A stretch of DNA of 64,000 nucleotides, from the NCBI GenBank assembly GCA_965116795.1, contig OZ220716.1:2218503-2282502 (forward strand), written 5' to 3'. Each line of letters opens with the position of its first letter. The stretch's first letter is position 1. Origin of the DNA: Gammaproteobacteria bacterium. Its GTDB lineage: Bacteria; Pseudomonadota; Gammaproteobacteria; JAJFKG01. A program made the translations under genes and the position numbers. Under the pieces are notes generated by a model. The model made no database searches, had not been told where the DNA came from, and saw nothing but the letters and a program-made list of their open reading frames with translations. Of the stretch, positions 35,564 through 37,692 are shown in pieces.

Positions 35564-36028
35564 ATGATAACTTTACTGGCTACATTAGCAGGTTTTATCT
35601 CTTCGGCGTTTCCAGATGTTTTAAAGCTTGTTAGAGACAGAGCTGATAGGAAACACGAGCTTGCGATTCTTGATAGGCAGCTTGAAGCCCAACGTGAAGG
35701 CCATGCTCAGCATTTAGAGGAAATTCAAATCCAAGCAGACATGACTGAGAGCAAAGCGTTGTATCAACATGCCAGTCTTCCAAGTCATGTAAAGTGGGTC
35801 GAAGCCTTGCGTGCATCGGTTAGGCCAATAATCACATATGCATTTTTCGCTTTGTTTGTGTTTGTTAAAGTAATGACATTAATTACAGCATTACAACAAG
35901 GGTTCACAGTAATAAATAGTGTGCTTACCATTTGGGACGATGAAACGCAAGCGTTATTTGCGGCTGTAATGGCCTTCTGGTTTGGCCAACGCAGTGTCGC
36001 AAAATCCCGTCAATTGCATCAGCGATAA
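35564..36028 (+). CDS. Holin-like protein
   Basis: MITLLATLAGF..., DRKHEL, ASVRPIITY, AFWFGQR. Confidence 0.75.
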   Translation: MITLLATLAGFISSAFPDVLKLVRDRADRKHELAILDRQLEAQREGHAQHLEEIQIQADMTESKALYQHASLPSHVKWVEALRASVRPIITYAFFALFVFVKVMTLITALQQGFTVINSVLTIWDDETQALFAAVMAFWFGQRSVAKSRQLHQR

Positions 36029-36081
36029 CTGCTCGAATAAATAGGGATAATGACTGGCTATACCTTCGATAGTAAGCGTTA

Positions 36082-36423
36082 ATGGTGATAAGAAAACATT
36101 TACTGGAGATTAAAACCATGAACACAAACACTTGCCACGTTAACATCACTATGATTGAAAATCCTGATGATAACTGCACACAGAGCGAAGTAAATGCCCT
36201 TATTACGGTATTTCGAGATGCACTGACTTGCATTGTTCCTACTCGCGCTAGCGAAGTATGGATAACCTTAAGCGATTCCACCAAAACGCCAAAGAATGTT
36301 AAGGACTTTCAAGTGCGTTTAGGGCGTTGCGAACGGTTTGCCGGAAAACCTGAAAAATGGGCAGGCGAATTTACCACCGCCAGCAAGAAAGTCACCTTGA
36401 TTGCACGGATAGACAATCACTAA
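36082..36423 (+). CDS. Small hypothetical protein, paralog A
   Basis: Likely ATG at 36118 after GGAG; duplicate at 456-788. Confidence 0.8.
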   Translation: MVIRKHLLEIKTMNTNTCHVNITMIENPDDNCTQSEVNALITVFRDALTCIVPTRASEVWITLSDSTKTPKNVKDFQVRLGRCERFAGKPEKWAGEFTTASKKVTLIARIDNH

Positions 36424-36441
36424 TTAACTCTCCTTGAGTTT

Positions 36442-36481
36442 GGCAACAGGCGCCTAACGTTGGCGTTTGTTGTCCTTTTTT
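36442..36481 (+). terminator. Rho-independent terminator
   Basis: GGCAACAGGCGCC-loop-GGCGTTTGTTGTC followed by a T-run. Confidence 0.7.
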
Positions 36482-36662
36482 ATTGAGTTAAACCCCATCT
36501 CCCCTACTCCATCATGAAGCCCTGTCACGTCGATTATTCCAGCCACATTAATGGCCTGCACATCAACGATGACTGCTGAAAATGATAGTGCTTTTGTACT
36601 GGCTATAGTGCACAGCCAGAGCCTTAATGGTAACACCGCATTGAAAGAAAAGGAGACTTATC

Positions 36663-36968
36663 ATGTTAACCGACATACTCAATCGCAAACCATTTATTTT
36701 TTACATCGATAATTTTCACTGTGATGAAGATGAAATCATGGCCTTGTTAAATTACTTTGAGTTTATTATGAAGCGTGCATCCATCGTGTCTGCCAGCAAA
36801 TTGTGTTTTATCCTCAAGCAAGCGGTTCCAAAGCATAGTATATTACACCCATTTACTTTAACGATGGAGCGCCATCTTGTTGACTCTAAATGGCAATGGC
36901 ATGGAGTATTTAAGCATGAGGTGGATAATAAAACGTTGCATGTGATGGGACTTTTACTAGAGCAATAA
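36663..36968 (+). CDS. Small hypothetical protein, paralog B
   Basis: AAGGAG RBS; duplicate at 1038-1343. Confidence 0.8.
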   Translation: MLTDILNRKPFIFYIDNFHCDEDEIMALLNYFEFIMKRASIVSASKLCFILKQAVPKHSILHPFTLTMERHLVDSKWQWHGVFKHEVDNKTLHVMGLLLEQ

Positions 36969-37203
36969 CTTCCCTGGCTTTAACTTGGCAGCAGGCGCAC
37001 ACAGTTCGCGTCTGTTGCGTTTATCAGGCTAAGCCAACCAAGTGCCGCATACAACAAGGTTACAACACACAGCCCAAAAATGGCATCTGCTGTTATCACG
37101 ATATCAGTTATCACTGCGGCAATAAATAGGCTTATTGACTGGATATCCTTTCCATAATAGGCGTAAATGAAGTTGTACATTAAATTGAATTGGAGGTAAC
37201 ACA

Positions 37204-37491
37204 ATGAACGAATCACAACACGCTATTCACACAAAATACATTGTTAATGACAATTATTCCGATGAGGAACTGGCTATCTTGGAAAATGTTTTCAAAGAAT
37301 CTATTGAAGGCTTAACACCAACGCCTGCCAACAAAGCTATTTTTAAAGTTGGTGATTGCATTAAACATGTCAACCTGCATCGAGTTAGATTGACGCTAGA
37401 GCGCTTTCAATTAGGCAAACAAACGCAATGGCATGGACAGTTTAAAGATGGCAACAAACAATTGCACATCATTGGGGCTATCGCTGATTAG
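37204..37491 (+). CDS. Small hypothetical protein, paralog C
   Basis: GGAGGT RBS; shares LTxER...QWHGxFK...KxLH with paralog B. Confidence 0.8.
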   Translation: MNESQHAIHTKYIVNDNYSDEELAILENVFKESIEGLTPTPANKAIFKVGDCIKHVNLHRVRLTLERFQLGKQTQWHGQFKDGNKQLHIIGAIAD

Positions 37492-37692
37492 TAATTTAGT
37501 AGACAGGTGTATTAAGCGCCTGCCCTTTCCTCTAGTTTGCTAGCTATATTACTCGTGCTTTAGCGTACATCATATAAATCACCTCTTTGAAGTATTAGCT
37601 AACCCAATCTTATTGATAACTCCCCTTCCCTATTCTGTGCTAGCAATGATGGTATTGGCTAATGCAGAAATAACAATGTGAGAAATGACATC

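Follow-up and report, generated by a model that had tools for sequence, protein, structure and literature searches.

Within the 64,000-nucleotide stretch of DNA analysed here (the window), a holin-like gene and a phage lysozyme gene bracket three open reading frames, A, B and C, that encode proteins of 101, 101 and 95 aa (Table 1). Each of the three is preceded by a GGAG or GGAGG ribosome binding site and by a leader of fixed spacing, in agreement with the first-pass annotation, which had ascribed to every gene its own conserved leader and a strong ribosome binding site. The same annotation had given A a length of 113 aa; the gene starts at 36118, and the longer ORF would begin within the -10-like box of the leader. 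The last codons of the holin-like gene overlap the palindrome of unit A, and the neighbouring cargo gene in the window encodes an FG-GAP repeat protein. A scan of positions 35000-38500 against Rfam revealed no credible RNA family. A single 1414-nt contig from public reads covers 36336-37749 with zero differences in two of the four runs of one study, which may include the source sample itself; the A-B-C order is thus unlikely to be an assembly artefact.

Table 1. Features of the A-B-C locus and related elements in the window (+, forward strand;., no strand assigned).
Feature	Position	Strand	Remarks
Large serine recombinase of host prophage	18154-19542		Resolvase+Recombinase+Zn ribbon
Holin-like gene, left flank	35564..36028	+	phrog_6637 E 7e-35; holin phrog_3427 E 3e-4; GTA_holin_3TM weak
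Unit A operator-like palindrome CAGT-N4-ACTG, 1 mismatch	36020..36031	.	centre 29.5 nt 5' of -35-like hexamer
Predicted promoter of A: C-TGGCTA-17 nt-GTTAAT, no -11A	36054..36083	+	spacing fixed in all copies
Gene A, type A, 101 aa	36118..36423	+	dN/dS 0.07 among 3 copies
Hairpin with T-tract 3' of A, intrinsic-terminator-like	36442..36482	+	z -6.0; terminator scan
Unit B palindrome, degenerate, 2 mismatches	36564..36575	.	
Predicted promoter of B: C-TGGCTA-17 nt-CTTAAT	36599..36628	+	leader pattern
Gene B, type B, 101 aa	36663..36968	+	AlphaFold pLDDT 90.8; dN/dS 0.06 for one pair
Hairpin 3' of B, related to A's terminator, without T-tract	36988..37018	+	z -3.1
Unit C palindrome CAGT-N4-ACTG, perfect	37105..37116	.	
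Predicted promoter of C: C-TGGATA-17 nt-GTAAAT	37139..37168	+	leader pattern
Gene C, type C, 95 aa	37204..37491	+	sole type C copy in genome
Short CAGGTG..CGCCTG hairpin 3' of C	37504..37522	+	z -0.3, not above shuffles
Phage lysozyme, right flank	37693..38124	+	PF00959 E 6e-38
Type A copy, neighbouring prophage remnant	486..788	+	94% identical
Type B copy, neighbouring prophage remnant	1038..1343	+	95% identical; own predicted promoter 974-1003

The proposal that A, B and C are paralogs was confirmed. BLASTP aligned A with C (31% identity, E 4e-10) and B with C (33%, E 4e-14), with a marginal A-B match (19%, E 0.016), and all three matched one family profile, built from A, B, C and their paralogs, at E<=3e-27; independent viral members matched it at E 1e-24 to 2e-12. 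The sequence pattern drawn up for the three proteins stood in part: W-x-G-x-F..K is present in each of them, but the N-terminal motif was found in relaxed form in B and C and not in A.

The source genome, a single contig of 2.45 Mb, contains 16 related prophage lysis loci, many of them followed by eukaryote-like cargo. Thirteen of these loci hold the family, with 28 genes and one fragment that belong to six types (10 F, 6 D, 5 E, 3 A, 3 B and 1 C) and form the arrays ABC, AB, B, ADEF, DEF (four loci), DF and F (four loci); unrelated cargo fills the slot in two of the remaining three loci and one is empty. The supposed partial retention of the cassette in a second prophage thus corresponds to real copies of A and B at 486-1343, although these are one of 13 loci genome-wide and not the other half of a pair. 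The six types are mutually 19-45% identical and separated by long branches; with 76/63 for the in-genome types as one clade, their monophyly is neither shown nor rejected. Type E is strongly acidic (pI 4.1), and type F, which overlaps the lysozyme start, is basic (pI 9.4). Two of the 28 copies are broken, one F by an internal stop and one B by a frameshift. The five multi-copy types are under purifying selection, with a within-type dN/dS of 0.06-0.18 against 0.12 for the lysozyme and 0.05-0.15 for holins. This largely refutes a reading of the genes as near-neutral passengers multiplied by repeat-mediated recombination without new function. The gain and loss driven by repeats, the broken copies and the empty locus would be expected of passengers, but the selection and the conservation of ribosome binding site, spacing and palindrome phase would not, and we regard this reading as the most improbable of those considered.

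All 28 family genes share the leader C-T(G/T)G(C/A)TA, followed by 17 nt mostly ending in AGC and by NTTA(A/C)T or a close variant; the five type E leaders have an 18-nt spacer. A profile of the leader recovered the 28 family sites, as its construction from them implies, and had no further match below E 0.9 in the genome. A relaxed pattern gave 50 genome matches, 26 at family genes and 24 elsewhere, and neither a stricter profile nor a weight matrix found a strong site away from family genes. The leader of the relatives reads TTGATA or TTGGCT, 17 nt, and GTTACT or GTTCAT, and the general pattern had 64 matches in 1.22 Mb compared with 1.7 in shuffles. The geometry of these elements (-35-like hexamers TGGCTA, TTGATA or TTGGCT and a -10-like GTTMMT) is that of sigma-70 with the -7T, but T stands at -11, which suggests a conditional promoter. 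A sigma-70 promoter scan found 9 sites where 7.5 were expected, none of them at the leaders. Furthermore, CAGT-N4-ACTG with at most one mismatch lies 5' of the hexamer in 24 of the 28 genome leaders, at 29.5-31.5 nt or at 50.5 nt (chance 0.2%); the latter distance, that of type E, places the palindrome about two helical turns further upstream. The palindrome is not general, being present at two of 311 listed leader sites outside the source genome.

The leader is not confined to this family. Viral contigs hold at least 351 leader sites with at least 314 unique downstream ORFs, 301 of these with a ribosome binding site, and the 228 complete ORFs have a median length of 96 aa. Among the matches listed, the largest groups behind the leader are DUF3489 (89), DUF6900 (65), DUF2924 (33) and the A/B/C family (33), and tandem sites are spaced by a median of 360 nt (n=78).

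The first-pass annotation had seen a related hairpin or terminator after every gene. This is clear for A, whose hairpin carries a T-tract and was the only one found by the terminator scan; the hairpin of B has no T-tract, and that of C does not exceed shuffled sequence (Table 1). Genome-wide, hairpins with T-tracts follow A and most D and E copies, and none follows F. Since a terminator stands between holin and lysozyme, expression of the lysozyme would depend on read-through or on the predicted promoter of the last cassette. Loci without A keep its terminator hairpin directly 3' of the holin. Between the holin-A region of the window and the holin-D region of another locus, near-identity extends across the -10-like box and stops immediately 3' of it; the A-B region and the A-D region of another locus are about 90% alike over the end of A, its terminator and the spacer, and split within the leader. 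The loose ends at 36083 match a switch at the leader. Judged from these alignments, sibling loci change gene type at the leader element.

A comparable arrangement is described for T4-type phages, where PeSL repeats, each a promoter with a stem-loop, punctuate arrays of small non-essential genes and act as exchange points at which genes are gained, lost or replaced (Arbiol et al. 2010, PMC2839356). Here, too, a repeated promoter-like element stands at a fixed position before small genes and gene exchange maps to the repeats. In contrast, the PeSL promoters are strong, sigma-70-like and belong to lytic myoviruses (PMC2839356), whereas the leaders described here lack -11A and belong to temperate phages, carry a lineage-specific palindrome and head an array of paralogs from one family. 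A stem-loop in every unit holds in part, the hairpin being weak after C and absent after F. Divergence at the leader matches the PeSL model and suggests that reshuffled old types contribute more to the arrays than new tandem duplications do. Tandem amplification of promoter-gene-terminator units, as proposed earlier, holds for the promoter-gene units, their amplification and their divergence, but the types are old, and sibling prophages appear to build the arrays by swapping genes at the leader. The A-B-C locus is a PeSL-like cassette array that carries an undescribed protein family with an unusual radiation into six types.

Outside the source genome, single-protein searches of viral contigs with A and with B gave no match, and viral members were first reached through the neighbours of the holin. 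A holin search of viral contigs yielded 80 loci, 15 with one family gene in the same slot; of the 31 viral loci in which holin and lysozyme are both present, 14 carry a family gene between them and 17 a gap of 9-11 nt instead. The profile search then retrieved 112 proteins, none with a functional name, and the close marine relatives are mostly 56-98% identical. GTDB genomes contributed 26 loci, with labels including Micavibrio, Kiloniella, Amylibacter, Cellvibrionaceae, Pseudochrobactrum, Rickettsiales and a Solemya symbiont, although labels of metagenome-assembled genomes may be unreliable. Plasmid records gave 71 matches at E<=1, 68 of them from Ralstonia and two from Megaera. The gene lies 3' of the lysozyme in Ralstonia-type phages, 3' of a DUF3489 gene in one strain and within an array of small genes in one contig; it is the second gene of an operon behind a consensus TTGACA-17-TATAAT promoter in the Megaera phage-plasmids, and some copies follow unrelated lysis cassettes. 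Across 106 of the 405 outside loci (81 distinct contexts) the gene is always a single copy, the two apparent doubles being frameshifted halves. Among the other genomes searched within the class, 399 were scored and one was left out; three of them have a match, one in each. The six-type expansion is therefore exceptional among the genomes searched. Fifteen single-copy relatives, drawn from marine phages, Rickettsiales-like contigs and Ralstonia-type phages, have a mean identity of 45.1% and share the conserved motifs I-x-D, L-L-D, A-T-L-x-R, D-F and G-x-F. In contrast to them, the in-genome types, with a mean of 25.6%, retain mainly G80, F82 and hydrophobic positions and have lost the A-T-L-A-R and D-F residues.

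AlphaFold models of B and of a marine single-copy member (pLDDT 93.4) agree on a strand, a long helix, a strand, a short helix and a three-strand meander, and this alpha/beta fold is confidently predicted. No transmembrane segment was detected in 107 members (maximal 19-residue hydropathy 1.24, compared with 2.31 for the holin), and the family shows no lipoprotein signal either; a holin, antiholin or spanin-type accessory was rejected on this ground, on the globular models and on the empty slot in 17 of the 31 related modules. The first-pass annotation recognised no family, and we found none either: Pfam, PHROGs, NCBIfam and PADLOC gave no match above cut-off, and the best hit of the family profile among PDB sequences had E 0.5. 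The weakest profile leads were phrog_11695 (E 7e-4, one Megaera member) and phrog_22592 (E 0.1, C), both PHROGs of unknown function. The structural check proposed earlier gave confident models (pLDDT 91-93) and no Foldseek match to PDB or BFVD at E<=0.001; VIA-align gave none at Z>=8, with best values of 6.0-6.2, which does not by itself prove the fold new. An ESM Atlas lead to Sigma-70 region 2 viral protein (Sigma70_r2, 0.95, 40% of members) was rejected: the best value for a second member was 0.80, the models have five strands and PF04542 was not matched. The top VIA matches were globular domains of the minor pseudopilins GspI/EpsI/XcpV (Z 5.7-6.2, rmsd 2.7-3.4, 72-75 residues), which likewise place one long helix on a beta-meander. 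With 3-7% identity, an unmatched first strand and neither the hydrophobic pilin N-terminus nor a prepilin signal in the A/B/C family, the modelled resemblance is one of common arrangement only. YfjZ (2ea9) and a Shigella protein (2inw), which we take to be members of the CbeA family, are, as CbeA/YeeU-type antitoxins, likewise small prophage alpha/beta proteins of about 100 aa, but the overlap is weak and at background level (Z 4.6-4.8, rmsd 2.9-3.2, 69-72 residues), and the A/B/C family has no PF06154 match and no adjacent cognate toxin gene. PF06154 had no match in the source genome, and the E. coli control was positive.

The gene context first suggests a lysis regulator, one of three functions guessed at earlier: the protein would modulate lysozyme or holin, and the predicted promoter would give the lysozyme a transcript independent of the holin. 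Family genes adjoin lysis genes in most contexts, including unrelated lysis cassettes, and the lysozyme is the next gene in 22 of the 60 distinct contexts with downstream DNA, mostly overlapping or abutting. Together with the overlap of type F and the lysozyme start, this indicates that the predicted family promoter may also serve lysis. However, the soluble protein has no membrane segment, it is missing from more than half of the related holin-lysozyme modules and from three of the 16 source-genome loci, members also occur away from lysis genes, and the types have diverged to about 26% while most lysozymes of the same loci stay 70-82% identical. The absence from related modules and the distant members weaken this guess, and we consider regulation of lysis unlikely.

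The downstream side offers a second candidate, immunity or an antidote to a toxic neighbour, which would be the eukaryote-like cargo here or, in relatives, a convergent nuclease-like gene. Such a gene faces the family gene in 21 of the 60 contexts, in three gene arrangements and often with abutting stop codons. Seven of these neighbours belong to DUF4268/PADLOC PDC-S11 and 14 to a family with a PD..ExK motif, without a Pfam or PADLOC match, which we take to be COG2958; single contexts face HNH, WYL or AAA-ATPase genes. Profile comparison detected no similarity between the A/B/C and the nuclease-like family. Nevertheless, the protein is conserved regardless of which of two unrelated families supplies the neighbour, and neither nuclease has a homologue in the source genome, which still keeps 28 copies. 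The earlier guess of immunity to the cargo is weakened as well, because cassette type and cargo are not paired across loci: related cargo of the WD40/Sel1 type is found behind DEF, F-only and empty loci alike, DEF loci carry differing cargo, and the neighbour in the window is the FG-GAP repeat protein. We therefore judge an antidote function decidedly unlikely. The only match in a search of longer proteins was a 405-aa protein whose C-terminus corresponds to the final ~70 residues of a family member; we read it as a recombination join, and it is weak evidence on fusions.

The expansion was confined to the one genome that has 16 sibling lysis loci, and the layout, in which late-region genes have a promoter and a terminator to themselves, is moron-like. 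Both would suit proteins that act in the lysogen against other phages, by superinfection exclusion or interference, with types diversified to distinguish sibling prophages. Constitutive sigma-70 expression from a leader without -11A is nevertheless doubtful, the same types recur in many siblings and are hence not locus-specific, PADLOC gave one weak partial match only, and the proteins have no membrane anchor, a feature of many exclusion proteins. The probability of this reading appears low. The genome also encodes DotI/IcmL (E 3e-52), and its prophages carry TPR, Sel1, ankyrin, SH3, WD40 and FG-GAP cargo, so that the proteins might be exported through Dot/Icm to a eukaryotic host as part of this cargo. 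Yet the family is also conserved where the phage hosts are not known to live in this way, has no eukaryote-like domain and shares its phage promoter class with DUF3489 and DUF6900, and export is highly improbable.

We tentatively favour, at slightly less than an even chance, a reading of A, B and C as separately expressed soluble accessory proteins, rather than parts of the lysis machinery, that would bind and block host defence or other targets, of the host or of rival phages. The leader would be a promoter that requires an activator or a phage factor, given the missing -11A and, here, the phased palindrome, and its firing, upon infection or induction, would be separate from that of the late operon. 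Prophage regulators in the window include a DUF6362 gene (12138-12515) and a sigma-like gene (16993-17502). Arrays would be gained, rearranged and lost as co-resident prophages recombine at their leader and hairpin repeats. After duplication, the six types may hold new binding specificities, as the retained core (G80, F82 and the hydrophobic positions) and the lost A-T-L-A-R and D-F residues suggest that the binding surface changed and the fold was kept. The favoured reading is consistent with a leader class that heads arrays of unrelated small accessory genes, with a location not tied to lysis genes and with relatives that often face defence-type genes. Adjacency to defence genes may, however, only mark a hotspot, since such genes also occur at these prophage ends without an adjacent family gene. 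Also counted against it are the lack of any fold or family link to a known inhibitor and the conservation of the single-copy form, which exceeds that of many arms-race proteins. Of the three functions guessed at in the first-pass annotation, anti-defence fits best, understood as counter-defence or host takeover. A broader model appears unlikely: a new modular phage conflict system in which one fold with six specificities is mixed by 13 co-resident prophages through a shared non-canonical promoter and a phased operator, as the diversified arm of a widespread but undescribed phage regulon switched on by a phage-encoded factor (DUF3489, DUF6900, the DUF2924-recombinase and the A/B/C family).

Among other known systems, the ardA and ardB antirestriction genes of pKM101 reportedly have homologous upstream regulatory sequences (Belogurov, 1993). 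There, too, one repeated leader is reported to drive several small genes of a mobile element, which offers a model of a counter-defence regulon. They form a plasmid system under ArdK/ArdR control, and Pfam and NCBIfam scans gave A/B/C no match to Ard families. The setting also resembles that of phage WO and Symbioviridae-like prophages, with multiple prophages in a host-associated bacterium, a large serine recombinase, and a lysis cassette flanked by eukaryote-like cargo (PMC9203015). The same account describes aquatic relatives in which the lysozyme adjoins a holin-like gene (Bordenstein and Bordenstein 2022, PMC9203015). The cassettes it describes are of the patatin or GH108 kind, compared with a PF00959 lysozyme here, and its passages on them do not mention the A/B/C family (PMC9203015).

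Searches of the open-access literature yielded no account of the family or its leader, nothing tying DUF3489 to prophages and nothing on DUF6900, and none of the titles listed on anti-defence proteins and paralogs concerned the family. Our analysis defines an unnamed and widespread phage protein family for whose confidently predicted fold no clear match was found. It also provides a natural experiment, in which a conserved single-copy form can be compared with six selected and diverged types in one genome. The shared leader offers a testable handle on the timing of expression of many unknown prophage genes. If the types indeed block different defences or rival phages, they would constitute a ready panel with which to search for new targets of anti-defence proteins in a Dot/Icm-bearing bacterium that has been little studied.

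The leader, a promoter-like element (a hexamer, 17 nt, then GTTMMT) that in this genome precedes each gene of the unnamed phage protein family of about 97 aa, has two candidates for the factor that reads it, a sigma-like ORF and a DUF6362 gene, both located in the window. The first gave no match in a Pfam scan, and both were found again in most sibling prophages of the genome, with 39-46% and 56-85% identity, respectively. The same leader stands 5' of a 253-aa ORF, assigned by eye as metallophosphoesterase-like, in a marine prophage (L128:8461, minus strand). A relaxed form of the pattern also matches antisense in several prophages of the genome, at a conserved site some 20 nt ahead of the match to a tail protein, which probably reflects coding conservation or possibly an antisense promoter.

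In two more distant prophages (L001 and L002), the same slot between the holin-like gene and the lysozyme is occupied by unrelated cargo. In alpha- and beta-type phages, a conserved protein of 313-317 aa, starting with MALNL and carrying a PD..ExK motif, lies tail-to-tail with the family gene, a position in which it alternates with the nuclease-like DUF4268/PDC-S11. Searches of Pfam and PADLOC returned no match for the MALNL protein, which is a candidate for an unlisted defence nuclease. Within the family, the type E proteins are highly acidic, with a pI of 4.1 and a net charge of -15 (e.g. C1 1097279-1097611), as DNA-mimic proteins are. Among the types, E is the strongest candidate for a role in anti-restriction.

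The prophage in the window is broken (30717-35181), its portal gene being interrupted by an IS66-like three-gene element, a second, near-identical copy of which lies at 43174-45614. Of the head and tail genes present in the siblings, it lacks some 15-20 kb. A stretch of some 2.1 kb (24380-26540), which lies between the early region and the gene for the methylase, contains no ORF of at least 80 aa and has many short inverted or repeated words. An imperfect 28-nt direct repeat (37520-37547 and 37620-37647, spaced by exactly 100 nt) is located between family gene C and the lysozyme.

Coordinates of the described features (C1, the single contig of the source genome)
Feature	Position	Strand	Remark
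Lysis loci	C1 95k, 364k, 1096k-1542k, 2109k, 2168k, 2219k, 2254k
Sigma-like ORF	window 16993-17502	-	recognised by eye
DUF6362 gene	window 12138-12515	-	weak Sigma70_r4_2
IS66-like element in portal gene	window 31373-33813
L001 slot cargo	C1 ~95.6-96.8k		397-aa ORF
L002 slot cargo	C1 ~364-367k	antisense	two ORFs, 236 and 651 aa
Antisense leader-pattern matches (examples)	C1 2107161, 1477124, 1420692	-
MALNL protein	L038:5798-6751, L433, L434, L017

Altogether the genome carries 16 related prophage lysis loci, 11 of them inside 1.06-1.55 Mb, and most have large eukaryote-like cargo on their 3' side, the kinds in these prophages being WD40, Sel1, TPR, ankyrin, SH3, FG-GAP, small-GTPase-like and patatin-like. 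The bacterium, for which the genomes of one database search included only two genus- or family-level relatives, also encodes Dot/Icm. The lysis loci, the eukaryote-like cargo and Dot/Icm are together read as a WO-like eukaryotic-association system.
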